A stretch of 64,000 nucleotides of DNA from Acidobacteriota bacterium (GCA_040007715.1 JBDTUN010000921.1:4761-68760), one strand, 5' to 3'; shown: positions 33,561-58,200, numbered from the stretch's first letter. Notes: a model not told the origin generated them from the letters alone. Numbers and translations are program-made.

Positions 33561-33783
33561 CACGGCAGCAGCTCTCTGCGGAAAGAACCTATGCCTTACA
33601 TATTTGTCCGAAGCTCTGGTCAGCGTTGAGTGCTACAAAGGACAGGAACAGAAAGTTGCGCGGCAGGGAAACCACCTAGGCTAGCGATGCTTTGCCTGCC
33701 TGCAATCTGATGTGGCGCACGAAAGCCAGCCAGTGAAGTCGTTGATCTCAGGGCACACGCTTATTTCGGGAAGGGAGATAGCT

Positions 33784-40803: not shown

Positions 40804-41712
40804 TCACCTCACGCCTAAACCACCGATGACCTTACGGAGTTCGGTACAGACGGGGGCGATGGCTGCGGACAGATTGCTGTCCCCGCTGTAAACATATGTC
40901 AGGGGCGTCACTCCAAGTATGTCGGTAGGGATTTTTACATCGGTATTCTGCTCCTTCACGATGAAAGTGCGACTCCGTTCAAGTCTGCCCATAAATAATC
41001 CAAGTTCAAACACCGTATTGTCGCGCGGGGCGTTGTATTCATTCTCTCGGCTAAAGACCTTATCGTCCGGGCTAAACACGAACACTGCGAAATCCGCTTC
41101 GTTTACCATATTCAAAAGCGTTTCGACGGGGATGCTTGACGGGCCAAACACGCCGTCCGTCCAGACGACGGCTTCGACGTTGTCGTATTTGAGTCCGAGT
41201 TGGATCTCCTGAGCTATCGCCCGGCTCTCGACGGAACATCCAAGGAATAGAAGAGGCTTCGTGTTCGGGTAGTTCAAGAGGGTGGATCTTTGGCGCAACC
41301 GCTCGGCGACAATCTGGGCAATAACGCGCCAGACTTGCGGATAATCTTGCGCCACCTGATGAAAGTCAGGCTCAGATACTTTCAGCGCCACTACCGGTGA
41401 GCGGGCGGTCAGACTAGCCGATCTGGGTTCAGTGGGGCTGAGGAGCGACATCTCCCCGATTGACTCGCACGCAACACGAACTGCGACCTGGCGGCCGTTG
41501 ACAAGCACATTAACTTCGCCGACCAGAATAAAGTAGACGTCGTTATCTTCCGCGCCTTGGGCCATGATCGCGTCGCCGGTCTCGAATGAAACTAATTGCC
41601 CCACTTCAGCGAGTCGGCTTGCAAGCGCCTCGTTGTGTTCTACAAGCGGGCAATTCTGTAGTGCGGTGATCAGACGCCGCTGTCCATCGGTTCCTTCAAA
41701 TCGTTTCTTCAT
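40804..41712 (-). CDS. cNMP-binding domain fused to a TIR-like (CAP12/Pycsar-effector-type, PF10137-like) domain: Pycsar effector-like protein
   Basis: N-terminal CAP/cNMP-binding fold (FETGDAIMAQGAEDNDVYFILVGEV...IGEMSLL...RSASLTA). The C-terminal ~150 aa read LLFLGCSVES...DFAVFVFSPDD...RDNTVFELGLFMGRL, the pattern of the predicted nucleotide-binding TIR-like family. Confidence 0.6.
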   Translation of the reverse strand: MKKRFEGTDGQRRLITALQNCPLVEHNEALASRLAEVGQLVSFETGDAIMAQGAEDNDVYFILVGEVNVLVNGRQVAVRVACESIGEMSLLSPTEPRSASLTARSPVVALKVSEPDFHQVAQDYPQVWRVIAQIVAERLRQRSTLLNYPNTKPLLFLGCSVESRAIAQEIQLGLKYDNVEAVVWTDGVFGPSSIPVETLLNMVNEADFAVFVFSPDDKVFSRENEYNAPRDNTVFELGLFMGRLERSRTFIVKEQNTDVKIPTDILGVTPLTYVYSGDSNLSAAIAPVCTELRKVIGGLGVR

Positions 41713-41789
41713 AGTTTGTCAGGCATTCTCCTTCCTACTTTTGGAGAGGGGAATGGCCACTGTGCCTATTGTAGTGTTTTTCAATTAAA

Positions 41790-42509
41790 TTAAGTGGGTA
41801 AACGGCGGCTGGAAACAAACGGGTTGTGTTTCCCGAGGTGCTTAATGAGTCTGACCAGACGCTTTGCGTGGCAATGCTTGAACTTCTTGCCACTCTTACA
41901 CGGGCAGCCCGCAGCCGGTTCTATCTCCTCTCTGCCGCTCAGCAGACCCACGAAGTTGCTGACGAGCGCGGCATCTCCCCCAAGCGCGTCCTGGACGAAC
42001 TCGATATACCCGACAATACCATGCCCCCGCTCCCCCCACGCCCAGCGCTGGTCAGGAGACGCTTCATAGATCAGTTGGCGCTCATAGAATGTTGAAACAT
42101 GGTCTAAAAAACCATGAAGGGCCATCGCTTCGCGAGCCTTCCACTGGGATTCGACCGGCAGCCACAGGCAACACCCGCCGTCCGAAAAAAAATGCCGGTC
42201 AGCGATGTGCGGAAATAGATTGCCGGTTTCGAAAGCCATCGGCTCCATCTCAGGGTAGCTATCCGGAAATACAACGCGAGTTCTCACCCGCGTCGGTATT
42301 CCGCATTCCGCACGCAGGGTGATGGTGCCGTCTAGAAAGACTTTCCTATCCGCATAATTCAGTCCGTACTTCAAGCCCGGATAGTCGCGGCGAATAAGAG
42401 CACGGTCTTGAGCGAGGCGCTCATCGCCGTCGTCTTGCTCAAACCAGCGTCGCTTCCCATCATCCTTCGGCGTATGACCGACCAGGTATAATAGTTCTCG
42501 CACTCTCAC
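41790..42509 (-). CDS. E2 (UBC)-like fold protein with C-terminal SEC-C zinc motif
   Basis: FPDSYPEMEPMAF...FPHIADRHFFSDGGCCLWLPVESQW resembles the E2 core (YPxxPP...HPN...GxICL...W). C-terminal CPCKSGKKFKHCH is a SEC-C motif. It sits between the cyclase and the effector. Confidence 0.45.
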   Translation of the reverse strand: MRVRELLYLVGHTPKDDGKRRWFEQDDGDERLAQDRALIRRDYPGLKYGLNYADRKVFLDGTITLRAECGIPTRVRTRVVFPDSYPEMEPMAFETGNLFPHIADRHFFSDGGCCLWLPVESQWKAREAMALHGFLDHVSTFYERQLIYEASPDQRWAWGERGHGIVGYIEFVQDALGGDAALVSNFVGLLSGREEIEPAAGCPCKSGKKFKHCHAKRLVRLIKHLGKHNPFVSSRRLPT

Positions 42510-44001
42510 GCTCTCTTTCGGTAATAGTCACACCAGAATTGCTGGAAGTGATAAATGCCGGTGCCCCCGCTGCGGCCGTAGCTTTCTCCGCCCGCTCTAC
42601 CTTGTCCGCAGTAAGGTCGTTTGCGACGTAACACCCGGTGCCGTTGTCATACTTGAAGTGTTTGCTCAGGCGCTCCGGCAGCGCATCGTAAATGCGCTTT
42701 GAAATGCCGATCTGACCGCCCGAGCAATTCTCTTCAAATTTCGCGGCGCTTTCTACGGGAGCGCCGAGGCAGATGCGGTCGCGGTGGGCGCGGGTGCCGA
42801 GCTTCGAGACAAGCGTCGTATCAATGTCAACGCCGACGGCCAAGCGCAGTTCTTCGGCTTCGGGAAGCTTCTCCTTGATCGTCTTCTCCATGGAGGATTG
42901 CAGCCCGACTGCGGCGTTCACCGCCTCGGTTGCAATGTCGGCCTCCTCGTTTTTCGGCAGGTGATACAGCCCCTGTACGCGGTCACCCTGAAACTGAACG
43001 CGCAGGCCGTTATAGTCGCTGGCCACCACCCTCGCCATCTCCTTGCGCACGGCGTGGAGTACGCGCAATGCGTTACGCTTGTCCTCCTCCGTCTCGGCGC
43101 GATCAATGTATGCAGTGAAGCCGGTGATATCGCCAAAGATTGAGGCTGCCAACACTCGTTTGTTATTCCAGATGCTGAGCAAGTCAAGGTCAATCAACTC
43201 ATTGGCCGAACTGTAATCAATATCTTTGAGTGGATGGTCGCGCTTATCTTGATCAACGCGCGCGCAGCTCTTTCCCCGGTCCCAGCCGATGCCGTATTCC
43301 TCAAGCAACTCATCCAACCGCTTCTGCGGCACCGCATTGATCTGGTAGACGTCTCCTTCGTCGGTCTCCGCGCAGAGTTCACGGAGATCGTCTGGGAGTG
43401 CATCGTAAACGGCCTTTGCGAGGCGCAGTCGGCCTGCCGAACTTATAATCTTGGCGGCGTAGTTGGCACAGGCACCTAGGAATAACAACTCGCGGTCATT
43501 ACGTGTGCCATTGCGGGTGCCGATTGAATCGCCAACGTCTGCGCCGCCAGCAACTGAGAAATTGTCCAAGAGCGGATACGCAGGATTGAATACCGAGGCG
43601 ACAAAATCCTTTAGCACTAACTGGAGTAGAAGAGCTTTCGTCGCCAGCTTCTTGGTTTTGTCGATCGGGCGGTAAAAGATAGCGTGCAACTTTGGTCCCT
43701 GGAAATGAATTCGAAGGCCGTCGAAGATGTCTTCGACGATGCGCGAAACCTCTCGCTGGTAAACATGGACTGCCTGGATGAATCGCTTGTAATCAGTCGC
43801 ATCGGCGATGCTTTCGCTCGCGATAGGGCTAAAGTTTGTAACATAGACATAGACGTGCGCAGCGTGAATCTCGCGGCAGCATGTCTCCGTCAACAGATTA
43901 TTGAGATCGGCCTCGCGAACGAGTTTTTCAACTTCAATCTCACCCATATTGTCGAGATGTTTGCCAATACGTTCCAGGCTGTCATTATAATTCCAGCTCA
44001 T
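42460..44001 (-). CDS. Class III nucleotidyl cyclase with tandem cyclase-homology domains (degenerate N-terminal plus catalytic C-terminal): PycC-like
   Basis: C-terminal domain: AASIFGDITGFT (metal-binding Asp motif), VQFQGDRVQGLY, LAVGVDIDTTLVSKLG, DRICLGAPVESAAKFE. N-terminal domain is degenerate (HVYVYVTNFSPI...ELLFLGACANYAAKI). Confidence 0.7.
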   Translation of the reverse strand: MSWNYNDSLERIGKHLDNMGEIEVEKLVREADLNNLLTETCCREIHAAHVYVYVTNFSPIASESIADATDYKRFIQAVHVYQREVSRIVEDIFDGLRIHFQGPKLHAIFYRPIDKTKKLATKALLLQLVLKDFVASVFNPAYPLLDNFSVAGGADVGDSIGTRNGTRNDRELLFLGACANYAAKIISSAGRLRLAKAVYDALPDDLRELCAETDEGDVYQINAVPQKRLDELLEEYGIGWDRGKSCARVDQDKRDHPLKDIDYSSANELIDLDLLSIWNNKRVLAASIFGDITGFTAYIDRAETEEDKRNALRVLHAVRKEMARVVASDYNGLRVQFQGDRVQGLYHLPKNEEADIATEAVNAAVGLQSSMEKTIKEKLPEAEELRLAVGVDIDTTLVSKLGTRAHRDRICLGAPVESAAKFEENCSGGQIGISKRIYDALPERLSKHFKYDNGTGCYVANDLTADKVERAEKATAAAGAPAFITSSNSGVTITERERESARTIIPGRSYAEG

Positions 44002-44123: not shown

Positions 44124-45572
44124 TTAAGCAGCCAAAGAATAATCACTAAACCTGCCGCGTCCGCCGCGCGACTGCCATAACTGGGATTGTGATACCGCGC
44201 AGCCACGACAGTGGCGGAGGGCTGCCCGCTTATTGGCGATCACGGCAAGCAAACCATAGCGTAAATCTGTGCCGACCTCATTTGGCAGCGCGGCTAATGA
44301 GCTTCCCTCAAGCTTGAGATACTCAGCCAGCAATAAGGAAGCTGCGCCGGCGGAAAGGAATGGCAGCGCGCCCTGGACAGGCGGCTTCGATTCTTCAACC
44401 GCGATATTGCCTTCCGCGCAAGGGCCGCGAAATTGGGCTGCTGGGCGAGGCAGACGGCAGAGCGTGCAGTCTTCGCGACGTGGAATATGACGCCCAGCCC
44501 CCATTCCCCAGCCGCTGGTCGTGGTCGCTTGTAAAACGATGGGCGGAAGCAGAAAAGGCACTTCTGCCCAGGCCGCATCTTCGTTCGTTAAACTGATCCA
44601 TACATCGAAGGGGTGTTCCGCCATTCGCCCCGAATGCTCGCGCCACGCGCCGACGATGGCTTGTGTATAGATGTTTTGATGAGCCAGATAGCTGTGCGCG
44701 ATGGCGGTTTTATCAGAAGCCGCAAGCGCGTCCTTGAATGTAAACATCGGTGACCTGTTCAGGTTGGAAGTCTCAACCTTGTCTCGATCAAGCAGGGTCA
44801 ACGAACCGCGTAGCGGCATTAGATCAGCCAAGTAGAGAAATGCCGAGCCGACTGCCCCAACGCCGGCCAGCAATGTTTCTCCGAGATCGAGGTGCGGCGG
44901 TGGCGGCGGCGCCTCGGCTTCTACGAATGGTTCAGTCAACAACCGATGCGACCACGTAGACCAGGAAAACTCCGGCAGCCATTGTGCGCCAGGATGTCCA
45001 ATTGCTCTCTTGAAGAGATCAGCCGCACCGAGCGAAGCTGCCAACCCGGCAGCCGCCATTGTTGCCGGTAAATCGAACTCGCCGTGGAAGCCTTGCCCCC
45101 TGCGACCCAATGCCGACCAGCCGGCAGCGTTGATGACGAAATCTTCGGGCTGTAAACCATGAGCTTGCTGGAAAGCGCCGATCAAAAGTCTCAGTCTCGG
45201 CCTTCCGTTACTGTGCGCGATCTCTTTGACCTGGAAATCTCCGAAAGGATCAGCCGTTTGCATTTCATCTTTGATTCTTTCGGCGAGAAGGTGGTAACGC
45301 CCGCGCCGGAATTGCGGGCAGAGCGCGACTTCAGGCACGATCAAACGCACATTGCGCGCCCATCGCGCCGTTAGGTTCGCGGCCAACAGAGCCATCGCTT
45401 GAACCGTCGGTTGCCCGGCACTGGAAGGATCAATCCGAATCTCGATTTCGCGTTGTGCGTAATCGGCCAGATTGGCAACTTCGAGTAGCGTGCGGTTATC
45501 ACGCTCCCTATAGAATGCCTCGGCCGAGGGCCACCGCTGTAAGGCTGCTTGCTTCATTTCTTTATTTCTCAT
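44124..45572 (-). CDS. E1-like (ThiF/MoeB-family) ubiquitin-like activating enzyme (BilD-like)
   Basis: LLAGVGAVGSAFLYLADL...LTLLDRDKVETSNLNRS is the Rossmann/ThiF signature. A CTLC pair lies downstream. 482 aa. Confidence 0.75.
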   Translation of the reverse strand: MRNKEMKQAALQRWPSAEAFYRERDNRTLLEVANLADYAQREIEIRIDPSSAGQPTVQAMALLAANLTARWARNVRLIVPEVALCPQFRRGRYHLLAERIKDEMQTADPFGDFQVKEIAHSNGRPRLRLLIGAFQQAHGLQPEDFVINAAGWSALGRRGQGFHGEFDLPATMAAAGLAASLGAADLFKRAIGHPGAQWLPEFSWSTWSHRLLTEPFVEAEAPPPPPHLDLGETLLAGVGAVGSAFLYLADLMPLRGSLTLLDRDKVETSNLNRSPMFTFKDALAASDKTAIAHSYLAHQNIYTQAIVGAWREHSGRMAEHPFDVWISLTNEDAAWAEVPFLLPPIVLQATTTSGWGMGAGRHIPRREDCTLCRLPRPAAQFRGPCAEGNIAVEESKPPVQGALPFLSAGAASLLLAEYLKLEGSSLAALPNEVGTDLRYGLLAVIANKRAALRHCRGCAVSQSQLWQSRGGRGRFSDYSLAA

Positions 45573-45579
45573 CCAGCTT

Positions 45580-46080
45580 TCATTCCCTAAAATCTTTTTC
45601 GCCGGGAATCACGACGATGTGCCGGGGCAACTCCGCCAATCCGACCACATGGAACTGGCCGTTGATATAACGGTGGATGCCGCAGCGATTGATATTGATG
45701 CCGCGCCGCCCGAAGTACGGCACGACCACCGACAGCGCGCCCTCGTGCCTGGCAAAGTTATGCTCGTCATCGAAGCGCGAATGTCTGACTTTGTGGCGCG
45801 GGTGCGAATGGGCCTGCCCGATCAAAACCAGCGGTGTGCCGACCATTGCCGCCAGCACCTGCGCATTCGCTTCCGGTGTGGTCAGGACGCAGCCGTAGCG
45901 AGTATCCGCATCCGGCACGGCCAGCGTGGTGATGATTGCTTTCGTTCCCGCTTCTATGCCGAGCCAATAAACGACACCTTCAGCTTCGCGTTCGGCTGCG
46001 AAGCTTGCTAATAGGTCAGCAGTCCGGATTAACAGCGAATCGCTGATCATCACTACCGGAAATTGATCATCCGACCGCAT
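45580..46080 (-). CDS. JAB/MPN (JAMM) metalloprotease (BilC/Cap3-like deconjugating peptidase)
   Basis: HSHPRHKVRHSRFD fits the JAMM motif HxH-x7-S-x2-D exactly. 166 aa. Confidence 0.75.
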   Translation of the reverse strand: MRSDDQFPVVMISDSLLIRTADLLASFAAEREAEGVVYWLGIEAGTKAIITTLAVPDADTRYGCVLTTPEANAQVLAAMVGTPLVLIGQAHSHPRHKVRHSRFDDEHNFARHEGALSVVVPYFGRRGININRCGIHRYINGQFHVVGLAELPRHIVVIPGEKDFRE

Positions 46081-46538
46081 CAGCTCATCCTCCCCGTTGC
46101 GTCCAGGGTCTTGGTGTGCATATCGCTGATCATCATCGCCAGTGTGGTGATCGGGCCACCATTGGGTGTAGGCAGATGCCAGTCAACTAGACGCCAATCC
46201 CCATGCGGCCCGCCGAGTTCGCCGTAGGCCCTGCGGTTGTAACGCATACACACGCAGGGTGCCGTGTGAAAGACGTTCGGGTAGAGCTGCTTCAAGCCGC
46301 GCGCTTGCCCGGCTTCATCCGTGAATTCGATAGTCGGCGGAAAAAGTGGGTATTCGCGGCAGTCGAACTCGGCGTGGAAATTCTCGCCGGCGCGATTGCG
46401 GAAAGTGACTGAGAACTTCAAATGTTCCGCACTCAGACCGCTGGCCTCGAGCACCAAATTGGCGGCGGAAACATAAGGCATCGCCTCCGCCAAGTCCTTT
46501 TGTACGGCTTCGAGCGAGATTTCTGCCGGAACACTCAT
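46080..46538 (-). CDS. E2 (UBC)-like ubiquitin-like conjugating enzyme (BilB-like)
   Basis: EYPLFPPTIEF...LYPNVFHTAPCVCMRY...W.LP resembles the E2 core (YPFKPPKVKF...YHPN...GxICL). 152 aa. Shares a stop/start junction with the JAB gene. Confidence 0.6.
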   Translation of the reverse strand: MSVPAEISLEAVQKDLAEAMPYVSAANLVLEASGLSAEHLKFSVTFRNRAGENFHAEFDCREYPLFPPTIEFTDEAGQARGLKQLYPNVFHTAPCVCMRYNRRAYGELGGPHGDWRLVDWHLPTPNGGPITTLAMMISDMHTKTLDATGRMS

Positions 46539-46855
46539 GCCGCGTTGCCCCCTTGCACCGACAGGATGAGTAGCGCGCCATCCTTCAGGTGATAGCTGGC
46601 GACGGTGCGCTCCGGTTCTAACTGCTTGTCATTGTGCAGGAGTACATACTTGTTGCCATCTTCGACGAAGCCGAAGACTTCGCGCACATCATTGATGATC
46701 TGCTGAATTTTGCTATTGAGCGCGTAGACCGGACGGCGTTGCGCATCGGGCGGTTGATCAATGCTCCATAGACCGCGCGTTGTTTGCACGCGCAAGCTCA
46801 GGCATTGGTGCTGGGGGTGCTTCTCTTCAAACTGTAACGTTTTCTCTTCGGTCAT
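46535..46855 (-). CDS. Ubiquitin-like (beta-grasp) protein ending ...ILSVQGG-NAA (BilA-like)
   Basis: 106 aa with a C-terminal GG followed by a 3-residue extension, which implies processing by the JAB protease. First gene of the Ubl-E2-JAB-E1 array; it overlaps the E2 start by 4 nt. Confidence 0.6.
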   Translation of the reverse strand: MTEEKTLQFEEKHPQHQCLSLRVQTTRGLWSIDQPPDAQRRPVYALNSKIQQIINDVREVFGFVEDGNKYVLLHNDKQLEPERTVASYHLKDGALLILSVQGGNAA

Positions 46856-46864
46856 GCTTTTACC

Positions 46865-46909
46865 TCATCAAACAAAAATGGTGAGAGCTTTTGATTTGCT
46901 CTCACCATT
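46865..46909 (-). terminator. Rho-independent terminator (minus strand): 12-bp perfect stem AATGGTGAGAGC / GCTCTCACCATT with 9-nt loop, followed on the minus strand by TTTGTTTGATG
   Basis: Read directly. Located between the stop of the helicase gene (46945) and the start of the Ubl gene (46855). Confidence 0.6.
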
Positions 46910-46944
46910 AGTGACGGACTGAAATTCTGCCGTGTGCGAAATTT

Positions 46945-49900
46945 TTATTGCGGGACGATTGCTCCTAACCAGTGCGGACACGAAACCCTGACTGGACACC
47001 CGCCACACTTGTAATCATCAACCAGAGCGACGAACTTGCCGCCGGTTAAGGCGCGCAAGCTCTCAATGGCCTTCGTTGCCTCAGCGTCCATTTTTTTAGG
47101 GTCACGATTCGGTTTAATGCGGTAGAGTCTGGCGTCCGCGCCGGAGAAGGCCCAGAACTGATTTGTTTGTTGAAACTGGCGCAAGACAACAAAAGAGACT
47201 CGCTTGTATGTCGCTTTAATGTCGCTCCAGTTCAGTTCATCGACAGCAAATTCTGAAAGGGAGTCGTGCCGGTAGATGAGCATGTGTTGCGCCCCTTGTG
47301 CATCCCGAAAGCAAGCCACGAGATCGAGGCGTAAGGGCAATAAGCCTTCTTCGTAGTTGAAAACTAAATCGTCAGCTTCTGATGCGTGCAGAAACTCCAC
47401 CGCCCCAGCATGCGGCCGGAATGCCGTGGCGAATCTTTTACTGAATGCCAAGCCGATGCGTTCGTAAAGCGCCTTGTGCGGGTGGTTCTGCCATTCCGGC
47501 TTCTGTTCGTGAAACTCGGCAAAAAAATGCTCTTCGGCCTCCGCCTCTGTAATTCGCCGCTTTTCAAGCTGAGCGCTTATGATGATCCTGCGCATTGCGC
47601 GTCTGACGGCGACAGTGAAGCGTGGGTAGTAGGCCGGTAGAGCTTCCGGGAACCGACCTCTGAGGAACTGCTCCAAGTAGGTTGCAACTCCACAAAAGCT
47701 CTTGTCGAGGTAGCGTATTGACAGATGTGCGCGTGGCTGCCGTCCCCAGAGATCATTCGTCGAGACTGATGTCTTGACGACTTCTTGCTCCGGCAGAGGA
47801 TTCTGTGGAATCGAGTAAACCGATTGCCACCGGCCTAGCAAGCCTGGTAGCTCTCGCTTATCGCCTTTGCTGGTTCGGGCTTCGGCATAGGTGATAGTGA
47901 CGGCGCGCTGGGCGCGTGTGAGGCCGACGAACAGAAGCGAGTCTGCTTGTTTACGATCCTCCTCGCTCGCTGGCATCAATGTGGGTGGCAACCACCAATT
48001 GCGCTCTTTGGTCTTATTCTTGTTGAGTGTTTGCCCGGCCACCACCACGCAGGGAAACTCCAGGCCCTTAGATGCATGACATGTCAGGACACGCACAGCG
48101 TCACTGCCTGAGCGAGGCGCGGCAGTCACTGGCTTGTTGCTGGATAGGCTATCGCGGAAGCACTGTGCAAAGCCGAGCCGCGATTCTCGGGGTCGAAGTT
48201 TTTGGTGGGTAAAACGATAACCGGCGGCGCGCGTAAGAGAAGTAATGATCTCACTCAACGCCAGCGCCTTAAGAGTTTTATCTTCTCCGCTCAAGAGGCG
48301 TCGCAGGTATACGCCGCCGTCGAACAGGAATAAGCACAATATTGCGAACGCATCGCTGCTGTGCTTCTGGCCGTGCAAGCTGGCAAACAATCGCTTGTAC
48401 TCGACGATCAAATCTGCTCCGGCGAGACGATCAGCTTCATCTTGCTCAGTGTTATCAACCTCACCCTCCGTCTCCGCCGCAGTGACCAGAAACCGGATCA
48501 CTTCGTTGAGCAATTCCGGTGCGTAGTTGCCCCTGCCGAGCGCATACACGACTCGCGGTATCGAAGCCACTCGGGCATCAGGCAGTGTCAACACTGCCGC
48601 CAAGTCACCCGCCGCGCCTTCGGGCGTGACCAGGCCGCTGATCATCGCTTTGATCTTGCGCTTACCCAAAGCCAGCACAATGTTGCGTACGTCAATGTTG
48701 CGCCGCGCGAGAACCGCGATTTCGCCAGGCTTGATCCCTTCATCGAGCCATTGCCTGATCAGTTCGGCGATGCCCTCCTGTTCCGCCGCGTCGGAGTTGG
48801 CGGCGAGGATTTGAACAGGGATCTCGCCAAACGGCTGATGATCTGATCCCGCTTCCCAGAAAGTTTGAAAGTCGCTGCTCGATTGTTCAGGCGCGGCCAT
48901 TAACGTTGCCATCTGATTCGCGGCTCGGACGACCTGCGGGCACGAACGATAATTGGAGCGCAGGTCGAAAGATTGCGCGGCTGGAAAGAGTTGCTTGAAC
49001 AGTGCGACGTTCCTGGCCGGATCGGCGCCGCGGAAACGGTAGATCGCCTGCCTGATGTCGCCGACTACCCAAGGCTGATTCCCCTCGCCGCAGATTTGCC
49101 CAAGAAGCTCGACCATTGCCAAACTGACATCTTGAAATTCATCAACTAGGACGTGCTGATATTGCTTGCGCAGTTCGGCGATGAACGTGGGGCTTTTACG
49201 TAGTGTGTTTAGCGTAAGCAGAATCAGATCGGCAAAGTCAACAGCGCTCTCATGCTTTACATCCTCGTACTTGCGGAAGAGTGCAAGGAACTGTTGCGCT
49301 TTTTGATGTACCAGCTTTTCTCGCGGTTCAGCCACTGGCATGGCGGCGACCGCTTGCTCAAGGTCGACCGGGCCATACATTCTATCCTTGAGAAAATTGA
49401 TCTGCTCGACAGCGTGCCGCGCCGTCTCTCCCGGATCGCGCAATGTGACGATTGCCTCGCATTCGACTTGGCCGAGGAGTGTTGTGAGAAGCTCTTCCTG
49501 GGCGATCTCGTCAAGAATCGAGAAGTCAGACGCCAACTTCATCGCGTGCGACAACAATCGCGCGTGGCCGAAGCTGTGGAACGTGTGAATTTCGATGCTA
49601 TTGGCGATCTCTTCATCGAACCGTTTCCCGATACGTTCACGAAGTTCGTCCGCTGCTTCGTTGCTGAAGGTGAGAATGAGAATGTGACTTGGGTCAACCT
49701 TTTCCTCTCTCAAAAGGAAGTCAACGCGCATCACCAGTGTAGCGGTCTTTCCCGTACCCGGCCCGGCATCAACGATGGTAGCGCCTTGCAGATATTCTGC
49801 CGCCCGCTGTTGCTGTTTATTCAGAGATATATCGCCAGACTTATCGATAGCCTCTGTTGCATCACCTTTGAGGAAGAGGTCGAAGAGTGCTTCAGCAAGT

Positions 49901-50421
49901 TGAACCTGAATGATCTCTACAGAGACGCCCCATTTTTCCGTGAGGCCGGTAACGATTTTGTCAGAGCCTTGCATCCAATCGGCGAAGACTAGGTCGGCTG
50001 GGCAAACGAACTCTTTAGCGAAGGCGTTGGCCTCAACCTCTTCGGCATCTTTCGGGTTATAACGGGCGATCGCGCCCGCGCCGTCGCTGGTCGTGAATCT
50101 GGAATCGCGTAGCGGATTAGGAATCGCGTGTGGCCCGATCAACCGTTGGTGAAGTTTGAGGTGGCCGAGTTCGTGGGCGAAGACAAACAGTTTTTCGGCT
50201 GGGTCGTTATCAAGCGCCTTGTCATATCTGAGCTGGCCTTTTTGTGGCAATAGCTCGGCCTTGCCGTGTTGCATTGCGTCGGCGCTAAGTGCTCGCGGTC
50301 TGATTTTGTGCTCTGTCAGCAAGTACTGTTCGAGCCTTGCTTGTAAATCTTCCGGGTGAGCGCCGATGACCTCTCTTAGTTCCCTACCCCGTCTGCGCGC
50401 AAGTTCAAGTCTTTTCATCAA
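46945..50421 (-). CDS. Fusion protein: N-terminal ImmA/IrrE-type Zn-metallopeptidase, UvrD/PcrA-like SF1 helicase, C-terminal Cas4/AddB-type nuclease with Cys cluster
   Basis: HELGHLKLHQ...EEVEANAFAKEFVCP (HExxH peptidase, DUF955/M78-like). DAGPGTGKTATLV (helicase Walker A) and further SF1 motifs. C-terminus VALVDDYKCGGCPVRVSCPHW (CxxCx5C). 1158 aa. Confidence 0.7.
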   Translation of the reverse strand: MMKRLELARRRGRELREVIGAHPEDLQARLEQYLLTEHKIRPRALSADAMQHGKAELLPQKGQLRYDKALDNDPAEKLFVFAHELGHLKLHQRLIGPHAIPNPLRDSRFTTSDGAGAIARYNPKDAEEVEANAFAKEFVCPADLVFADWMQGSDKIVTGLTEKWGVSVEIIQVQLAEALFDLFLKGDATEAIDKSGDISLNKQQQRAAEYLQGATIVDAGPGTGKTATLVMRVDFLLREEKVDPSHILILTFSNEAADELRERIGKRFDEEIANSIEIHTFHSFGHARLLSHAMKLASDFSILDEIAQEELLTTLLGQVECEAIVTLRDPGETARHAVEQINFLKDRMYGPVDLEQAVAAMPVAEPREKLVHQKAQQFLALFRKYEDVKHESAVDFADLILLTLNTLRKSPTFIAELRKQYQHVLVDEFQDVSLAMVELLGQICGEGNQPWVVGDIRQAIYRFRGADPARNVALFKQLFPAAQSFDLRSNYRSCPQVVRAANQMATLMAAPEQSSSDFQTFWEAGSDHQPFGEIPVQILAANSDAAEQEGIAELIRQWLDEGIKPGEIAVLARRNIDVRNIVLALGKRKIKAMISGLVTPEGAAGDLAAVLTLPDARVASIPRVVYALGRGNYAPELLNEVIRFLVTAAETEGEVDNTEQDEADRLAGADLIVEYKRLFASLHGQKHSSDAFAILCLFLFDGGVYLRRLLSGEDKTLKALALSEIITSLTRAAGYRFTHQKLRPRESRLGFAQCFRDSLSSNKPVTAAPRSGSDAVRVLTCHASKGLEFPCVVVAGQTLNKNKTKERNWWLPPTLMPASEEDRKQADSLLFVGLTRAQRAVTITYAEARTSKGDKRELPGLLGRWQSVYSIPQNPLPEQEVVKTSVSTNDLWGRQPRAHLSIRYLDKSFCGVATYLEQFLRGRFPEALPAYYPRFTVAVRRAMRRIIISAQLEKRRITEAEAEEHFFAEFHEQKPEWQNHPHKALYERIGLAFSKRFATAFRPHAGAVEFLHASEADDLVFNYEEGLLPLRLDLVACFRDAQGAQHMLIYRHDSLSEFAVDELNWSDIKATYKRVSFVVLRQFQQTNQFWAFSGADARLYRIKPNRDPKKMDAEATKAIESLRALTGGKFVALVDDYKCGGCPVRVSCPHWLGAIVPQ

Positions 50422-51391
50422 GGTTTCCTTTTTTCGCCAAGTCCAACCAGTATTCCTTTACCTTCTTCGGCAAATTGGACCGTTCGATCCTATCAATGAA
50501 GCTTGAAACGCCTGGTGGATACGGCGACTTTCTGAGCGCCGCGACTTTGGCCTCTGCGCGCGAGCCACGGCTCGCGGCTCGCCTCAGCCTAGTTTTGTCG
50601 AGACTGTAACTGCGCGCGAACCGGTCAATGATCTCTTCCCGCACTGGGATGGGCGTGAGATCGTAATGATCTTCAACGTAGACCATCACTACATCGGGAA
50701 TGTCATTGTCACTAGCAATCTTCTCCTCTGCGAGACCGGTATGATCCGTCAATAGCCGCATCAGATCATCGTCGGCATCCTCATCCGACTCGTTCGCTGC
50801 CAATTTTTCGACTGGGGTTGCCGGATGATTGGATGTGCTGCCGCTCTTCTGTTTTGCCGTTTGCGCCGCGCCTTTGGCCTGCGCAAACCCCTCGCTCTCT
50901 AACCACTGCTTGGTTTGCTCGATTGACTGCGCCGCTACGCCTGATGGCAATGGCTCATCCAACTCGCTGTCAACGAGTAGGGTGAAGAAGTCATAAAGCT
51001 CGTCTTTGAATTGCGGATATTGATCGGCCAATTGATCCGCCAACTGGTGATCCTGCTGTTGTAGCCAAGCCGTCTCGATACGGGCATAGAGCTGCTCCAG
51101 CGCGATCTGTTGTAAAGCAATCACGCCAATATCCGCATCCAGTCTTTGCCAGTGTAAGCCGTCGCCCGATGGCGAGACCTCCACTTGCGTCAGTTCGTCG
51201 GTCGAGCCTTGCGCTAATTCTTCAACGGCCAACGGCGAGAAGCTAAAGCTCTCCTCGTTTTGCAGGCGCACAACGACCAAGCCGGATTCGCGGTCGTAGT
51301 GGGCGTGCCGGGCGCGCGGTTCAACGGCATGAGCGGCAGCGGCTGCGCGCTTGGCCTTCTCGTACTGCTCGTCAAACATTTTGTCATCCAT
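50405..51391 (-). CDS. DUF2442-domain protein with long acidic C-terminal extension
   Basis: N-terminal LVVVRLQNEESFSFSPLA...DGLHWQRLDADIGV resembles DUF2442. Overlaps both the upstream DUF4160 gene and the downstream helicase gene. Confidence 0.45.
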   Translation of the reverse strand: MDDKMFDEQYEKAKRAAAAAHAVEPRARHAHYDRESGLVVVRLQNEESFSFSPLAVEELAQGSTDELTQVEVSPSGDGLHWQRLDADIGVIALQQIALEQLYARIETAWLQQQDHQLADQLADQYPQFKDELYDFFTLLVDSELDEPLPSGVAAQSIEQTKQWLESEGFAQAKGAAQTAKQKSGSTSNHPATPVEKLAANESDEDADDDLMRLLTDHTGLAEEKIASDNDIPDVVMVYVEDHYDLTPIPVREEIIDRFARSYSLDKTRLRRAASRGSRAEAKVAALRKSPYPPGVSSFIDRIERSNLPKKVKEYWLDLAKKGNLDEKT

Positions 51392-51623
51392 GGATTTCTC
51401 TCCACTTTCTCAGCAGAAACAGATGGCGCTCTTCCACAATCGCCACGGCGCGGCGTGCATCGGGACGGTTCATCCACACTTCCCTGATTGCTAGCGGTTC
51501 TGTTTCGCTGCCTAGGTTGATGATGATCTGTTCGTTATCTTTGACAACGTGCACATGGGGCGGGCGGTGATCGCGCGTGTAAATCCTGACTTCAAAACCA
51601 TCTTGCATTAACACGACGGGCAT
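51384..51623 (-). CDS. DUF4160-family small protein (partner of DUF2442)
   Basis: MPVVLMQDGFEVRIYTRDHRPPHVHVVK... is the DUF4160 signature. 79 aa. Confidence 0.55.
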   Translation of the reverse strand: MPVVLMQDGFEVRIYTRDHRPPHVHVVKDNEQIIINLGSETEPLAIREVWMNRPDARRAVAIVEERHLFLLRKWREIHG

Positions 51624-51667
51624 ATGATGACTGGCTCCTCCGCTTCATCGTAATCTGCTCCGGTTGG

Positions 51668-52507
51668 TTACTTGCCTTGATAGCGGTTTCGCAACCAGTC
51701 GAGATCAAGCTCTTTCTCTTTTTGCTTAATCAGCGCCGCGAAGAGCTTGGCCCGTGCTTGTTTAAGCGTACGCGAGATGCGATAGCGGTCAATCTCCAAT
51801 TGCTCCGTCAGCGGCAGATTGCCAGTCTCCGAACGGCCTGATGAGATCGGTGAGGGATCAGGGCCGAATTGATCCTCGGCAACTCGGCGCATTAACGGGT
51901 CTTTGAATTCAGCGATGGTGCGACGAACGAAATCTTCGAGCCAGGGTACTTTGCTTTGGCGCATCGCTACGTGCCAGGGGATGGAGTCGTCGGCGACTTC
52001 CAAAGGATCACTCTCCATACCGGACCCTGGATCAATCACCATTTCCACCCGCTCGCCCCTGATCTTTTCGCCGCGCCTGCCGTTCAGATTGCGCCAGCCG
52101 TCCTCAAAACTGTGTTTGCAAAATGTTACCCAGTTGGTTTCGGCAAATGCTCCCCTCTCTGTCGGCAAAGTCCTGACAATCTCTTTAATCGCCTCCTGAA
52201 ATAAGTCCTCAGCGTCGTAGGCATATTGGCCTCGCGCGACCCGTTGCTTGGCCAGTTTTCGCACGACCAGCAAGTAGATCTCGCGGTGTCTAGTTGCTAC
52301 CAGCCGTTCCAACGTTACGCGCGCCGCCGCACCCACTCCGGCGCTGGCGAGTTGCCGAAAAGACTTTGCCAATACAGGTGCCGGTAGCTCGCTCGCTGTA
52401 GCCGTATCAAGCAGATGTAAATATTCGGGTGAATCAAGTGGCGGCAGTGCAGCGAAGATCATTTCATAGGGTTTCACTGCTGCTGCCGGCGTTTGCAATA
52501 AATCCAT
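51668..52507 (-). CDS. Sigma-70/ECF-like RNA polymerase sigma factor-like protein (tentative)
   Basis: C-terminal HTH-like region (LTEQLEIDRYRISRTLKQARAKL) resembling sigma region 4, and a region-2-like helical segment upstream. Weak call. Confidence 0.3.
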   Translation of the reverse strand: MDLLQTPAAAVKPYEMIFAALPPLDSPEYLHLLDTATASELPAPVLAKSFRQLASAGVGAAARVTLERLVATRHREIYLLVVRKLAKQRVARGQYAYDAEDLFQEAIKEIVRTLPTERGAFAETNWVTFCKHSFEDGWRNLNGRRGEKIRGERVEMVIDPGSGMESDPLEVADDSIPWHVAMRQSKVPWLEDFVRRTIAEFKDPLMRRVAEDQFGPDPSPISSGRSETGNLPLTEQLEIDRYRISRTLKQARAKLFAALIKQKEKELDLDWLRNRYQGK

Positions 52508-52887
52508 GCCTGCTCCTAATCAGTTTACATCTTGAAAGGCAGCCTCCCTTCTGATGAGCAATTAGAGTCACGGACAGAGAAAGGCTTATGTGCAAGAAAA
52601 ATATCGGGCGTTCAAGTGGTATCTTCTAATCATGATTTTGGCGTCATTCAGTGTCCTGAAGAGTGCATTCTGTAATGATCTTGCAGGGGCTTGGCCGGGA
52701 TTGGCATAAGGATGCTTCCCAAGCAAGGCAAAGCCTATGTCTGTCTTGGCGGTGGGTCAAGGTAATTGCCTAAAGAATTGGGTATGGGTGCTTGTGCTTT
52801 ATGAAGGGTAGTTGCTGTTGGCAACAGAAGGCTAAGCGTTAAAAGCGGTCAAGTGTTGCGTATCGAACCTTGCTTCGAGTGGCAATT

Positions 52888-53696: not shown

Positions 53697-55283
53697 GTAA
53701 CCGTTCAGTTGGTTAGCCGTTTTCCCCGTGTCCGTATGGACAGTTGTTGGCTGACAAATTATTCTGCGGCTCGATGTGGCAAGCTTTGGGAATCAGTGAG
53801 AATGATTGGGCGCAGACCCCTTTGGCGGTGCGCACGGCGCTCATCTCTCAGCAACAGCAACTCTATTTGCTCCAGATTCGTTGCGCAGCCTATGAACAAG
53901 AACTTGCTGTTTTGCGCGCGCAGGTGCTGCAAATTGACGATCTCAAAGCGGAGATTGCTGAACTCAAAGAACGGCTGGGACGCAATTCCAACAACTCCTC
54001 ACAACCGCCCTCCGCTGATTCTCCGGCACAGCGAAAGAACACGACGCGCGAATCGAGCGGGCGCAAACGCGGCGCGCAGCAAGGGCATTCGGGCGCAGGC
54101 CGCCACCTCAAACCTCCGGATGAAGTAGATCAGGTCGTGATGTTACGTCCAACCAGTTGCGGCGCGTGCGGCAGCTTGCTGCTTGGCGAAGATCCGCAGC
54201 CCGCCCGCCATCAGGTCAGCGAAATCCCGCCCATCAAAGCTCTCGTCACCGAATATCAACGCCACACCTTATCCTGTCTGGCGTGCGGCGTGCGCACATC
54301 AGCCGAGTGGCCATCCGACTTGCCGACAGGCTGCTTTGGGCCGCGCGCCCAAGCCCTGGTCGGTTATCTGAGCGGACGGCTCGGCGCGAGCCAGCGCGAC
54401 CTGCGCGAAGTTTTGACGGATTTGTTCGGGCTCTCGATTAGTCTAGGCAGCATTTCGGCGCTCCAGCAACGTGTCAGTGCAGCACTGAGTATACCGGTCA
54501 CCGCTGCTGGTCAGTTCACGAAGGCGCAGCGTGTGCAATACGTAGACGAAACTGGTTGGAGAGAAAACCTTCAGGCAAAATGGCTCTGGATCAATGCGAC
54601 GGCAGAGGTGACAGCCTTTCACTTGTTAGACCGTCGCAATACGGCCTGCGCTCAAAGGGTGATTGATGCGCAAGCCAAAGGGATCCTCACGACGGATCGT
54701 TATAGCGGCTATCAATGGTTAGCCAACCGCCGCCGCCAGATTTGTTGGGCGCATCTCAAACGGGATTTCCAAGCCATCGCCGAACGCGCCGGAGAGGCCG
54801 GGCAACTGGGGGCGCAATTGCTCGCTCAAGTCAAAGCCTTATTCACGCAATGGCACGCCTATCGTCAGCCGGAGGGACCCACACGATTGGCGCAGCGTAT
54901 GGCCCCGATCAAAAGCAAGATCAAAGAATTGCTCCAATCTGGCGCTCAATTGAGCCACAGCAAGACCCGCCATACGTGTCAGCAGATCCTGAAAGTATGG
55001 GATGCGTTGTGGACGTTCGTGCGAGTGGAAGGGGTCGAACCGACGAACAACAATGCCGAACGTCCCTTGCGGCGTGCGGTGCTGTGGCGACGCAAATCCT
55101 TCGGCACGCAAAGCTCGCAAGGGAGTGAATTCGTGGCGCGCATCCTGACGACGATCACGACGTTGCGGCAGCAAAAGCGAAATGTCTTGGAATACCTGAC
55201 ACAGACTTGTACCGCGGCGCTCACTCAAACCTCACCGGCCAGCTTACTGCCGCCTTAACTTTCTTACCCAACTGAACGGTTAC
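53697..55283 (+). mobile_element. Intact IS66-family insertion sequence (single-ORF type, ~1.59 kb) with 16-bp perfect terminal inverted repeats GTAACCGTTCAGTTGG and 8-bp target-site duplication TTTCATAT (53689-53696 and 55284-55291)
   Basis: IRs and TSD read directly from the sequence. The internal ORF has IS66 TnpC hallmarks. Confidence 0.85.
53744..55258 (+). CDS. IS66-family transposase (TnpC-like)
   Basis: Leucine-zipper N-terminus, zf-IS66 Cys pairs (CGACGS...CLACG), DDE region (YVDETGW, TDRYSGY, CWAHLKRDF) and the IS66 C-terminal motif TNNNAERPLRRAVLWRRKSFG. Confidence 0.85.
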   Translation: MLADKLFCGSMWQALGISENDWAQTPLAVRTALISQQQQLYLLQIRCAAYEQELAVLRAQVLQIDDLKAEIAELKERLGRNSNNSSQPPSADSPAQRKNTTRESSGRKRGAQQGHSGAGRHLKPPDEVDQVVMLRPTSCGACGSLLLGEDPQPARHQVSEIPPIKALVTEYQRHTLSCLACGVRTSAEWPSDLPTGCFGPRAQALVGYLSGRLGASQRDLREVLTDLFGLSISLGSISALQQRVSAALSIPVTAAGQFTKAQRVQYVDETGWRENLQAKWLWINATAEVTAFHLLDRRNTACAQRVIDAQAKGILTTDRYSGYQWLANRRRQICWAHLKRDFQAIAERAGEAGQLGAQLLAQVKALFTQWHAYRQPEGPTRLAQRMAPIKSKIKELLQSGAQLSHSKTRHTCQQILKVWDALWTFVRVEGVEPTNNNAERPLRRAVLWRRKSFGTQSSQGSEFVARILTTITTLRQQKRNVLEYLTQTCTAALTQTSPASLLPP

Positions 55284-58200
55284 TTTCATATTCAATTTCC
55301 GCCCGGTCGTGATTCAAGTTAGTGACGTGCTGAGCCTCGTTACTTCTTTCTGATTGCAAAATCTCGCGGAGACTCTCAAATTGCCACTCCTGATCTGAAT
55401 CCACATAACCCGAATAATGCTCAGTCAGTTTTTGTGCCTCAAAATCTTGACGTGCTGCCTGCTCCCGCACCTCACCAGCCAGGCTTTTTGCTTCCGTCTT
55501 CAAGTGAGTAGTCTCTGTCAGGCGCAGATTCGCCACCGTCGCCCAGTCTAATTCGTGCGCTGGCAGCACCGCAGGCTGCTCGCGCTCAGACACTGGTTGC
55601 TGGCGTGACAGTTCAAGGTTTCGCCGCAGTAAGTCAATATTCTCAAAGCCGCGATATAGCTCTTCACGCGTCTTCGCTGCGTAGGCATCCAACTCGGCCA
55701 GCTTACGGGCGTCAGCAGGAGCGAGTTTCCCAAGCACGCCTCGCGTGAACCGCTCTTGCTCTTCGGAGCTTCCGAAAAGCGGTCTCTGTCTGGTTTCAGA
55801 CAAGGCATCGGACCCGGCTCGGTGGGCATGCTCGGCTAGGTATGCACTCCGCTTGGCATACGTGTCTCCCACCTTCAAGCTTTCTATATGATCACCATCG
55901 CTTTCAAGCCTTTGCTGTCCGGCCGGATCACGCTGAATGCCAAAAGTATCTGTTTGTCTTTGAGCAATAGTCTGCTCCAGGTTCGTGACCGTTCCGACTC
56001 CTGACGGATTGTCCTGCTCAACCGCTCCGCGTTGGAGCTCGCGCAGCTTGGCGCTGAAAGCCTCAAGATAAGCAGATCGTTCTCGATCTTCACGCAGCCG
56101 CTTTTCCTCCGGCACCGTTTGCTCGTAAATGAACTGCTCGCGCGCGGCGTGGGCGATCCGTGCTCGCTCCTGCAAATGCTCGTGTGTGCGCGCAATCGCA
56201 TCGCTCAGGTGCAAGGCTGCGGGGCTGGGGTTCCTTTCAAAGATTTCCGGCGGTGCAACCGACTCCCAAGCCAGGCTGCGTGCCCGGCGGCGCAGTTCCG
56301 CTTGCTCTTGTGACGGCAGCAGGGTGCGGGCTTCCGAAATCGAGAGCGACAGTATTTCAACGGTCGCCTTTTCACCGCGCACGGTAATTCCACGCCGCCG
56401 GTTCACGGCATCATTCAGCATCTGGCGCTCGACCGCCCCCATCGTCGCCATGTAATCCCGGTAAGCACCACTCGCTGCGGGAAGCTGGCCGAATCCCCGC
56501 CCAGTAGATGCAGGAGTAATATTCGTTTCGCGCCCAACTTCTCCCTCTCCGACACTGCGATCAGATGCGGACGATCGCGCCAATGCTTGCGTTCTCTCTT
56601 GCACGCGCTCAAACAGGTAATTGCGTTCATGGGGAGCGAGGCTTTCGTGCAGGCTGTGCAGGTCCACTTTGCCGGGGTTATCGAGCTTCTCGTTGAGGAT
56701 CGCCGCTTGATAGTGTGCAACGGCTTTGACGCTGTGCCGATCCCCCAACTCTCGTAGCATGAGCTTCAGTGCCGGTGACGATTCTAGCTGACCTTCGCGC
56801 AACAACTGCGCCCGTGCTTCCCGCTCTTCTCGCGACATTCCCCAATTGAACTTCAACTCTCGCATCTCCGGACTGAAACGTTCCGGCGATCGTCCGTAGA
56901 AGAGTAGCTGTCGCTGCCGCGCGTCGAGCGGGAGCGGCTCCGGTAACGGATATTGATCCGGCTCTTCGCGATGAAGTCGCAGCAATCGGCTACGTTCAGT
57001 GTTCTCGCGGAGGAAGTTTTCTGCTGTCCGGCTCAACTCCTTCGGCGTGCGAGCCGCGCCGATCTTCGTCTGTGCCTCACGAAATTCGGGGGAGCGGTTG
57101 AGCTCCCGCGTCTCAGGATCACGCAGTCGCTCGTCAACATATGCTTTGATGAAGCCGCCGATCTTGAACCACTCGTCACCCTCTTCCGGCCCACCCTGCT
57201 GGGCTTCATTCAGCTTCCGCTGATGCCCGTCAATCGCGGCAAAAATGATCTCACGACTGGTTCCACTCTCAAGCTTGCGATCAATCGCCGGGAGCGTTTG
57301 CGCGACCAGCCGTTCCTTCGCCTCGAAGCTCAGCCCGGCCGGCAAGCGCAACGATTCTGCGTCGAGTCTAACCTTGCGTGCGCTGGTGTTCATGCCAAAG
57401 GCGACGGCTTCATTCTCCCGCCCGTCATCAAGATTTACTTGCCCCTCCGGGCTGTAGCCGCCGCCTTCGGCCACATGCTGTATCTCGCTTGTTTCTTGGC
57501 CATCGCGGGCAAATCGGTCATCCGTCGTGACACCGCGCCCTTCGTCGGAGCTGGACCCGCCCCACATACTTCCAGCCTCCCTTACCTGTTCCAGAGAAAC
57601 AACTGGCTGTGCAATCTCGAGACTGTGTTGCGTTTCAAGTTGCCGCATGACGGCGGCCATCGTGCGCATCTCAGCGAGTGTGCGCCCCATCGCCGCTTCA
57701 CGCTCCGTCGTCTGATCCTGCCTCAGTCGCCGTCCTCTCTGATCCCGATTCAGCCGGTCGTAGTAGAATCGGAAGGTCTCGATCTCACCGCGCGCGTCGG
57801 CCATCTCGCCGGCGATGGCGCGACCGAGCGCATGAAATTCGGCGGCGCTCTCAGGGTGCGGAATGCGTTCGTAAGCATAAGAAAGAGAGGTGATGAAAGG
57901 CTGATCGTTCTCTTCACGCAGTTCGTGACCTTCCGCCGGAATGACGAGCGTTTCGCCTTTGATCATCGCGCCCCGTTCGTAGAGGTCGCGCATTTCCTGG
58001 CTCTCTTTTCCCAGCCAATCGGCCTGCTCAGCCGACGTTCGGTAATCGGGATCATCCAGACTCCGGCTCTGCAATGCGGCGCGCACGTCAGTGGCGCGCG
58101 GACGCTCGGTCTCCTCCGGTTCCGGGCCGCGCGCCAGAATCTCAGTGAGCAGTTCACGCCCGGCGAGTGAGGGGTTGCGGCTGGCGGCTGACAGCAACCG

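Follow-up and report, generated by a model that had tools for sequence, protein, structure and literature searches.

The 64,000-nucleotide stretch of Acidobacteriota DNA considered here (GCA_040007715.1, JBDTUN010000921.1:4761-68760, called the window below) contains, at 46945..50418 on the minus strand, a gene for a 1157-residue protein that joins an M78 peptidase, a UvrD helicase and a Cas4-fold iron-sulfur (Fe-S) domain. This fusion gene is the last of a three-gene cassette whose other members encode a sigma factor and a small partner protein of DNA-binding type, here termed X. A Bil- or Bub-type ubiquitin-like operon adjoins the cassette in 49 of the 60 loci that have enough flanking sequence, and in the window this is a Bil-like operon. 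The arrangement is read here, with reasonable though not high confidence, as a switch of the CapH/CapP type in which the peptidase is fused to a helicase and a sigma factor is an integral part, and which would control the adjacent operon. It could further define a fourth class of 'Cap'-type regulator, in which a helicase/pseudo-nuclease sensor proteolytically releases a dedicated sigma factor and so turns Bil/Bub operons on, a wider proposal that we make tentatively. The rival explanations weighed below each account for fewer observations than the helicase-fused switch.

A peptidase, a helicase motor and an iron-sulfur domain in one protein

The open reading frame (ORF) extends over 46945..50421 on the minus strand and translates without internal stops. 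Its likelier start is the ATG at 50418, which has AAGGAA just before it and overlaps the stop codon of the upstream gene; this start gives the 1157 residues numbered below. All the strings quoted in a preliminary description of the gene are present: HELGH at residues 82-86, EEVEANAFAKEF at 126-137, DAGPGTGKTATLV at 217-229, DDYK at 1134-1137 and CGGCPVRVSC at 1138-1147. Pfam matches were obtained for Peptidase_M78 (residues 71-174, E 5.5e-11, 42.8 bits against a cut-off of 22), UvrD-helicase (199-468, E 2e-60) and UvrD_C (773-846), and no Pfam or NCBIfam family matched residues 856-1157. An identical protein has been deposited at NCBI from an Acidobacteriota metagenome-assembled genome, and the architecture recurs in over 120 full-length homologues (39-91% identity, 100% coverage); the fusion is therefore not an artefact of sequencing or assembly, nor a chance ORF. 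The preliminary description was right in seeing a peptidase, a helicase and a cysteine cluster in a single intact ORF, which is not split in these homologues. Its view that the fusion is unusual does not hold, because the family is widespread and conserved, occurring in about 60 species of many phyla and on plasmids.

Residues 1-175 (49894..50418, minus strand) comprise a zinc-peptidase domain of the M78 (CapP/IrrE/ImmA) type and a helix-turn-helix (HTH)-like linker, with the match to PF06114 above its cut-off, in agreement with the ImmA/IrrE-type metallopeptidase proposed earlier. The HExxH…E motif is made up of H82, E83, H86 and E127, none of which varies among 31 aligned homologues or among 56 family members drawn from many phyla. 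With the N-terminal 195 residues as a profile, the best genuine relative in the PDB was CapP (7t5t, E 6.7e-7), followed by IrrE (3dte, E 0.0027). Both zinc motifs align with those of CapP, and the HTH-like linker follows the peptidase as it does in CapP and IrrE. The GAF-type sensor domain that these two proteins possess was not found in the fusion protein by Pfam or NCBIfam, and residues 199-1157 consist of the helicase and the Cas4-fold domain.

The middle of the protein is, as was also proposed, a superfamily 1 (SF1) helicase of the UvrD type. Its SF1A core, residues 199-846 (47881..49824, minus strand), is covered by the UvrD-helicase and UvrD_C matches, and the motor motifs are intact: neither the 31- nor the 56-sequence alignment shows any variation at the Walker A sequence GPGTGKT (G219-T225), D426, E427, Q429, D430 and the arginines R491 and R835. 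Two PADLOC models, the GajB-like one and the UvrD one associated with defence-associated reverse transcriptases (DRTs), match the protein strongly (E ~1e-60) over residues ~195-595, that is, over the generic core only, and PADLOC found no GajA among ten neighbouring proteins. Membership of Gabija or of a DRT system was rejected on these grounds.

The remaining domain, residues 856-1157 (46948..47853, minus strand), has the Cas4/AdnA/AddB fold according to a structure model, Foldseek and its cysteines, and is probably catalytically dead. The model was computed from an alignment of 25 sequences and reached a predicted local distance difference test score (pLDDT) of 89 and a predicted template modelling score of 0.83. 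Its matches in the PDB were the Cas4-family protein ACE1 (9iab, E 4e-7), AdnA (6ppr, 5e-7), AddB (3u4q, 1e-4), Dna2 (1e-3) and the Cas4 protein SSO0001 (4e-3), with template modelling scores of 0.25-0.49. All 56 members have C909, C1138, C1141 and C1147. These residues follow a 1+3 pattern (one N-terminal cysteine, then CxxCx5C) and align to the cysteines of AdnA; they are supported as putative ligands of a four-iron, four-sulfur (4Fe-4S) cluster.

A profile of the window-clade version of this domain had no match among PDB sequences, and the link to AdnA and Cas4 came only from the structure model and from a profile of proteobacterial-type C-terminal domains, which aligns to the AdnA nuclease domain with E 2e-10. 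When 1.84 billion representatives were searched exhaustively with a profile of the window-clade domain, 122 clusters were returned, all of this protein type or fragments of it and none a canonical nuclease; this version of the domain is rare.

In the comparison with AdnA, motif II (GRLDRLE) matches a mostly kept aspartate, D1032 in the window and Asp in 40 of the 56 members. Motif III of AdnA, VVVD934-L-K936-TGKS, has vvvR-r-v-R-tG as its aligned counterpart in the family and L-I1048-Y-R1050-H-D in the window; the AdnA(D934A) structures, which are nuclease-dead, carry a mutation of D934. The (D/E)xK of this motif is lost family-wide, the acidic residue being replaced by Arg or a hydrophobic residue and the Lys by Arg, so that most members have R-x-R and the window protein has I-x-R. 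The QxxxY motif is not kept in the family either. Because both motifs are lost, the domain is probably a DNA-binding Fe-S pseudo-nuclease. Of the Cas4-type Fe-S nuclease in the preliminary description, the fold and the 1+3 cysteine pattern thus stand, and the active nuclease does not. The DDYK to which significance had been attached was rejected as a catalytic motif: its counterparts in other members are NERACD, NEFFCD and EEYNCD, and it lies past the last β-strand, beside the cysteine cluster rather than on the catalytic strand.

These results bear on the reading offered in that description, in which the protein is a stand-alone ATP-dependent helicase–nuclease effector comparable to AddAB, AdnAB, Nhi or Gabija, its peptidase gating the degradation of foreign DNA. 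The combination of a helicase, a Cas4 fold and an Fe-S cluster does resemble AdnA, AddB and Dna2, and the GajB-like and DRT-associated matches and the location of the gene within a defence island speak for such an effector. The replacement of AdnA D934 by Arg or Ile and the loss of QxxxY argue against it, as do the restriction of the PADLOC matches to the UvrD core and the lack, by PADLOC, of GajA or another nuclease partner; an effector would also leave the conserved sigma and X partners and the promoter arrangement described below unaccounted for. We regard it as improbable.

A sigma–X–fusion cassette beside ubiquitin-like operons

The distribution of the cassette was established by a locus scan that took one genome per species and returned 80 loci. 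About 60 of these encode a protein of 1100-1250 residues with HExxH around residue 84, Walker A around residue 217 and a C-terminal CxxCx5C. The hosts belong to the Acidobacteriota, Gemmatimonadota, Chloroflexota, Alpha-, Beta- and Gammaproteobacteria, Latescibacterota, Patescibacteria, Verrucomicrobiota and Planctomycetota, and the proteobacterial hosts include Aeromonas sobria, Pseudomonas, Caulobacter, Sphingomonas, Mesorhizobium and Collimonas. A word-indexed homologue search with X gave only close relatives, and iterated hidden Markov models built from the window proteins were used instead on the fetched loci. With these, sigma and X were found directly upstream of the fusion gene, on the same strand, in most of 63 non-redundant loci. 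UvrD-like helicases without HExxH (loci L072-L084), which served as a control, have neither sigma nor X adjoining. At E ≤ 1e-20, 298 plasmid records matched, and the same trio is present on plasmids; the first cassette gene carries the annotation sigma-70 family or sigma-24 on pAb-C102_1 of A. baumannii and p2 of P. koreensis.

The first cassette gene of the window (51668..52507, minus strand) encodes a 279-residue, extracytoplasmic function (ECF)-like sigma factor of the sigma-70 family. Its match to NCBIfam TIGR02937 (E 5e-7) is below the cut-off of that family, and the assignment draws on a family profile, which matches sigmaE (1or7, E 1.2e-5), SigH, FliA and SigL from the end of sigma2 to sigma4. 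Over its full length the window sigma shares 48.5% identity with its positional counterpart in locus L001, where the fusion-protein relative is 45% identical. Sigma70_r2 matches weakly in the neighbour of another homologue, P0067.

The second gene (50405..51391, minus strand) encodes 328 residues, of which 31-93 match Pfam DUF2442 and ~95-328 constitute the XRE-HTH-like X. This X part is homologous to L001_183 (E 4.5e-19), and its residues 98-328 are homologous to an N-terminal extension of about 230 residues in longer homologues of the fusion protein (P0024, E 2e-21; P0067, E 5e-8). Because X is fused to the N-terminus of the peptidase in these longer proteins, which make up 9 of the 120 best homologues, it is considered a dedicated partner. 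P0067 has no separate X gene, and a sigma gene directly precedes its fusion gene. The X family profile matches the XRE-type HTH protein 3kxa (E 7.7e-5) and ClgR. In the structure model of X (pLDDT 71) an N-terminal helical domain (pLDDT ~80) leads through a disordered linker to an HTH-like domain, after which come C-terminal helices; Foldseek gave no significant fold match for this model, and neither profile nor fold searches matched an anti-sigma family or structure. The family has a near-invariant K-[AS]-D-x-K-P (RKSPYP in the window, at ~P293, about 50510-50530) that sits in a predicted disordered linker leading from the HTH-like domain to the C-terminal helices. This motif is a candidate for the site at which the peptidase would recognize or cleave X.

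The preliminary description had noted that ImmA-like peptidases act on cognate repressors, and this logic applies here, with the product X of the upstream gene as the partner. It had also suggested that the fusion gene leads a DUF4160/DUF2442/helicase block. The fusion gene is instead the last gene of the sigma–X–helicase cassette, and the DUF genes are clade-specific additions. The DUF4160 gene (51384..51623, minus strand; 79 residues; PF13711, E 7.7e-10) and the DUF2442 fusion are limited to the window's own clade (L087-L089), and the other clades have sigma–X–helicase without either. An extra input or a toxin–antitoxin-like pair are examples of roles that these two may have. Locus L001, which encodes the relative P0012, has two extra genes (216 and 78 residues, without Pfam match) between X and the helicase at 6990-7977.

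The Bil-like operon of the window (44124..46855, minus strand) was recognized by the PADLOC models BilB, BilC and BilD and by the Pfam ubiquitin-like, Prok-JAB and ThiF families. Its genes encode a ubiquitin-like (Ubl) protein (46535-46855), an E2-like protein (46080-46538), a JAB protein (45580-46080) and an E1 (44124-45572), and the same four genes lie downstream of the helicase in L087, L088, L089 and L090. The operons beside other cassettes were classified by clustering the neighbouring genes. Multi_ubiq, a JAB–ThiF fusion and DUF6527/BubE, a set resembling Type I Bub, are found downstream on the same strand in 27 loci, and a set of Ubl-like, DUF7665, JAB and E1-like genes in 19, in addition to the window's own Bil-like set. 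In L003 and L005 a Bub-like operon is divergent and upstream of the cassette. At least three types of ubiquitin-like operon, co-directional or divergent, are therefore linked to the cassette. The plasmid pAb-C102_1 has the same arrangement of cassette and ubiquitin-like operon, and the linkage extends to the X-fused homologues: P0067 has a divergent Multi_ubiq/E2/JAB-E1 operon, and P0024 is followed by four genes of Bil-like size.

In three relatives (88, 68 and 51% identity) the same eight genes from sigma to E1 are kept and the flanks are unrelated. Because the eight genes are kept while everything outside them differs, 44124..52507 is delimited as the mobile unit in the window, and sigma, DUF4160, DUF2442::X, the M78–UvrD–Fe-S fusion and the BilA/B/C/D-like genes appear to move as one. 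A YdjM gene (PF04307) recurs just downstream of the unit (L087, 18618-19070; L088, 14503-14955; L003, 11456-11908), and in L003 it directly follows the helicase gene.

The tight, ancient linkage to Bil/Bub operons and the co-mobility also favour a reading in which the fusion protein is itself a working part of the ubiquitin-like pathway, as a DNA-tracking targeting factor, a Ubl substrate or a processing peptidase, and sigma and X regulate the whole set. Bil/Bub operons have no recognized E3 or targeting factor (doi 10.1101/2024.11.21.623953), a gap that such a protein could fill, and the fully conserved motor motifs would be costly for a mere switch. Association with at least three unrelated operon types, in both orientations and sometimes with none nearby, is on the other hand the typical pattern of a portable regulator, and most described Bil/Bub operons function or occur without the cassette. 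The pairing of an M78 peptidase with an XRE-type protein, with occasional fusion of the two, fits the logic of CapH/CapP and ImmA/ImmR. A role within the pathway is thus rather unlikely, and a helicase-fused CapH/CapP-type switch remains the preferred reading.

Promoter-like motifs, a hairpin and a proposed mechanism

A promoter-like motif, TTGCACA-N13-GTCCGTGA, is present about 60 nucleotides upstream of the sigma start (52566..52596, minus strand) and is conserved in L087, L088 and L089. A matching motif, TCGCACA-N13-GTCCGTCA, directly follows the helicase stop codon (46910..46940, minus strand). In the window and the three relatives both blocks stand out from otherwise diverged spacers. The pattern [TC]GCAC-N14-18-[TC]CCGT has three matches on both strands of the 64-kb window, two of them at the predicted sites, and exactly two in each relative, at the sigma-upstream and post-helicase sites; L001 has a match 94 nucleotides upstream of its sigma gene. 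Read as a -35 element TTGCAC and a -10 element CCGT separated by 16-17 nucleotides, the motif would have the layout of an ECF-type promoter. The best ungapped 30-nucleotide identity between sigma-upstream and post-helicase spacers was 17.8, against 17.0 in the control, a test that is too insensitive for this purpose; bipartite patterns were used in its place.

Distant clades have a related motif, T[TA]CCG[GC]-N13-18-[CG]GAT[TA], which in 28 of 62 loci falls between -40 and +250 relative to the helicase stop, in most cases 3-23 nucleotides past it. It also occurs upstream of sigma in 9 loci and at both sites in 8. About 1.8 matches are expected by chance across all the zones tested.

Between the post-helicase motif and the Ubl gene lies a hairpin, GGTGAGAGC-N9-GCTCTCACC, extended by AU pairs and followed by a U-run (46869..46909, minus strand), which has the form of an intrinsic terminator or a stem-loop of the 5' untranslated region. 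Its predicted stability is -19.2 kcal/mol (z = -4.07), and L087-L089 retain it through compensatory and G·U changes. The strong terminator reported in the preliminary description is thus real, and it probably blocks read-through from the cassette. The separation of the fusion gene from the Bil-like operon that was described with it is not supported: the two are linked in most loci and co-mobile, and the promoter-like motif lies between the helicase stop and the hairpin. Only about 15 nucleotides lie between the hairpin and the Ubl ribosome-binding site, too few to accommodate a further promoter. The arms of the hairpin were rejected as a repeated operator, since copies of GGTGAGAGC with at most one mismatch are about as frequent as expected by chance, and exact copies are confined to the two arms. 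In the distant clades, the helicase–Ubl spacers of L012, L017, L018, L020, L023 and L043 also contain a stable stem-loop after the motif, in what is presumably the 5' untranslated region and mostly without a U-run; it may be a conserved RNA element or a protein-binding site.

These features suggest a mechanism in which the 1157-residue protein would be both sensor and protease, an AdnA/AddB-like helicase with a nuclease-dead Fe-S domain taking the place of the GAF sensor of CapP and IrrE. The ATP-driven motor and the Fe-S domain would engage aberrant DNA, such as single-stranded DNA (ssDNA) or free ends arising from phage replication or DNA damage, and this engagement would activate the N-terminal zinc peptidase. 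The peptidase would then cleave the XRE-HTH-like X, its presumed substrate or inhibitor. Loss of X would either free the ECF-like sigma or de-repress the promoters of sigma, and sigma would transcribe from the two matching promoters, one driving its own gene in a feed-forward manner and the other, past the helicase gene, driving the ubiquitin-like operon. The hairpin and U-run would insulate the Bil-like operon from read-through of the cassette. Control would be exerted by the cassette on the operon through sigma.

Several observations weigh against this mechanism. The structure model of X has a pLDDT of 71 and no significant Foldseek match, and X may be either a DNA-binding repressor or an anti-sigma factor. 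The strict form of the distant-clade motif lies upstream of sigma in only 9 of the 62 distant loci, and the shared motif could be an operator instead of a promoter. The predicted -10 element is about 7 nucleotides before the hairpin and U-run, and transcripts that start there might also terminate unless something intervenes. In the C-terminal domain, the mostly kept D1032 and residue 1052, which is near-invariant as E/D in the window's clade, leave room for a non-canonical active site; such a site is conceivable because of the conservation of E/D1052, but we consider it doubtful. Finally, about 11 of the 60 loci have no ubiquitin-like operon nearby. L001 has none downstream of its helicase, and other genes are found in the remaining loci, for example a DNA methylase gene or genes for TauD-like and SMC-like proteins. 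In L051 and L064, which belong to a minor cassette clade with C-terminal CxRCx5C variants, a divergent TauD-like dioxygenase gene and a gene for a 1337-residue SMC-like ATPase adjoin the cassette.

The surrounding island and comparison with known systems

The Bil-like operon is directly followed by a Pycsar-like block (40804-44001, minus strand; PADLOC) made up of a PycC cyclase (42460-44001, E 1e-121), a 239-residue protein that PADLOC labels 'E2' and that has a SEC-C motif (41790-42509), and a PycTIR effector (40804-41712), all on the minus strand; this is Pycsar with an E2-like accessory gene. Further content of a defence island may be represented by a Shedu-like SduA_C protein (33712-35073), an 869-residue PLD-like protein (35141-37750) and a 2629-residue ORF (25671-33560). 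On the other side, just beyond the sigma promoter region, are an IS66 transposase gene (53744-55258, plus strand) and, beyond it on the minus strand, a 1021-residue ORF without Pfam match (55264-58329) and a MobL/VirD2-type relaxase gene (58381-60699). The island sits in a mobile element.

This setting bears on a further reading, in which the cassette switches the induction or maintenance of the mobile element in a manner similar to ImmR/ImmA of ICEBs1, is equipped with a conjugation or replication helicase, and has the ubiquitin-like operons as incidental cargo. ImmA/ImmR is the founding example of the control of an integrative and conjugative element by an M78 peptidase and an XRE-type protein. 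The relaxase and IS66 genes of the window, the genes for a relaxase, a single-stranded DNA-binding protein and an integrase in relatives, and the many plasmid copies would all fit such a switch. Relatives that retain the sigma-to-E1 block, however, have completely different flanks, the clustered neighbourhoods contain no relaxase, integrase or replication gene as a constant neighbour, and the post-helicase promoter-like motif points at the Ubl gene. A switch that serves the element itself is very improbable, and the helicase-fused switch that acts on the adjacent operon is retained for the comparisons that follow.

For the activation of Bil/Bub operons, the cassette points to another route of input, in which a motor reads DNA, proteolysis follows and sigma drives transcription. 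If this is correct, it provides the step that activates Bub systems and that has so far been missing; these systems have no established biological role and gave no phage defence in heterologous tests (doi 10.1101/2024.11.21.623953). The linkage of cassette and operon spans dozens of species and clinical Acinetobacter plasmids. The cassette would also provide the first helicase motor coupled directly to a protease of the ImmA/IrrE type, and a case in which an Fe-S nuclease domain of the RecB/Cas4 type has been reused as a probable non-catalytic DNA sensor. Neither a helicase-fused peptidase nor such a cassette is mentioned in the papers that define CapH/CapP, Bub and CapK/CapS or in their supplementary tables. 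No description of the cassette was found in the searchable literature, the coverage of which is incomplete, so that this is absence of evidence only.

As an enzyme, the fusion protein resembles AdnA/AdnB, AddA/AddB, RecB and Cas4/Dna2, in which a RecB-family fold with an Fe-S staple of 1+3 cysteines comes after an SF1A motor. It differs from them in the loss of the catalytic D-x-K and QxxxY, in the lack of an encoded partner subunit and in the added N-terminal peptidase. AddB combines a dead motor with a live nuclease, and the fusion protein is the reverse, with an intact motor and an apparently dead nuclease. GajB of Gabija shares with it the strong match of the UvrD core (E ~1e-60) and a location in defence islands, but GajB has no M78 or Fe-S domain, and the fusion protein has no GajA partner.

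As a regulatory system, the cassette is closest to CapH/CapP and its relatives IrrE/DdrO and ImmA/ImmR. CapP is an M78 peptidase activated by ssDNA that acts together with an XRE-type repressor, CapH, to de-repress an adjacent immune operon (doi 10.1101/2022.04.27.489752, Lau et al. 2022). CapH–CapP fusions exist, and a sigma-70 factor is found beside 24 CapH/CapP pairs in loci of the cyclic-oligonucleotide-based antiphage signalling system (CBASS) (doi 10.1101/2022.04.27.489752); CapH and CapP are also present in 31% of Bub operons (doi 10.1101/2024.11.21.623953). The two systems thus have in common the HExxH…E peptidase with its HTH-like linker, an adjacent partner of the XRE type, fusions of partner and peptidase, a position beside immune operons that include Bub, and a sigma-70 factor that sometimes adjoins CapH/CapP. 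They differ in that CapH/CapP uses a GAF sensor, whereas the fusion protein has about 960 residues of UvrD helicase and Cas4-fold Fe-S domain. The sigma factor is occasional in CapH/CapP loci and nearly universal here, where the genes run sigma–X–peptidase in the same direction as the target operon.

Dedicated regulators beside immune operons are also known in DdvS/DdvA and CapK/CapS. The ECF sigma/anti-sigma pair DdvS/DdvA controls an island of CBASS and clustered regularly interspaced short palindromic repeats (CRISPR) in Myxococcus (PMC11506125), and both DdvS/DdvA and CapK/CapS (PMC13373217) share with the cassette a logic of the sigma/anti-sigma type and a suspected input from DNA damage. 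The anti-sigma factor DdvA is a transmembrane protein and CapK a kinase, whereas in the cassette release would presumably occur through proteolysis by an M78 peptidase fused to a helicase.

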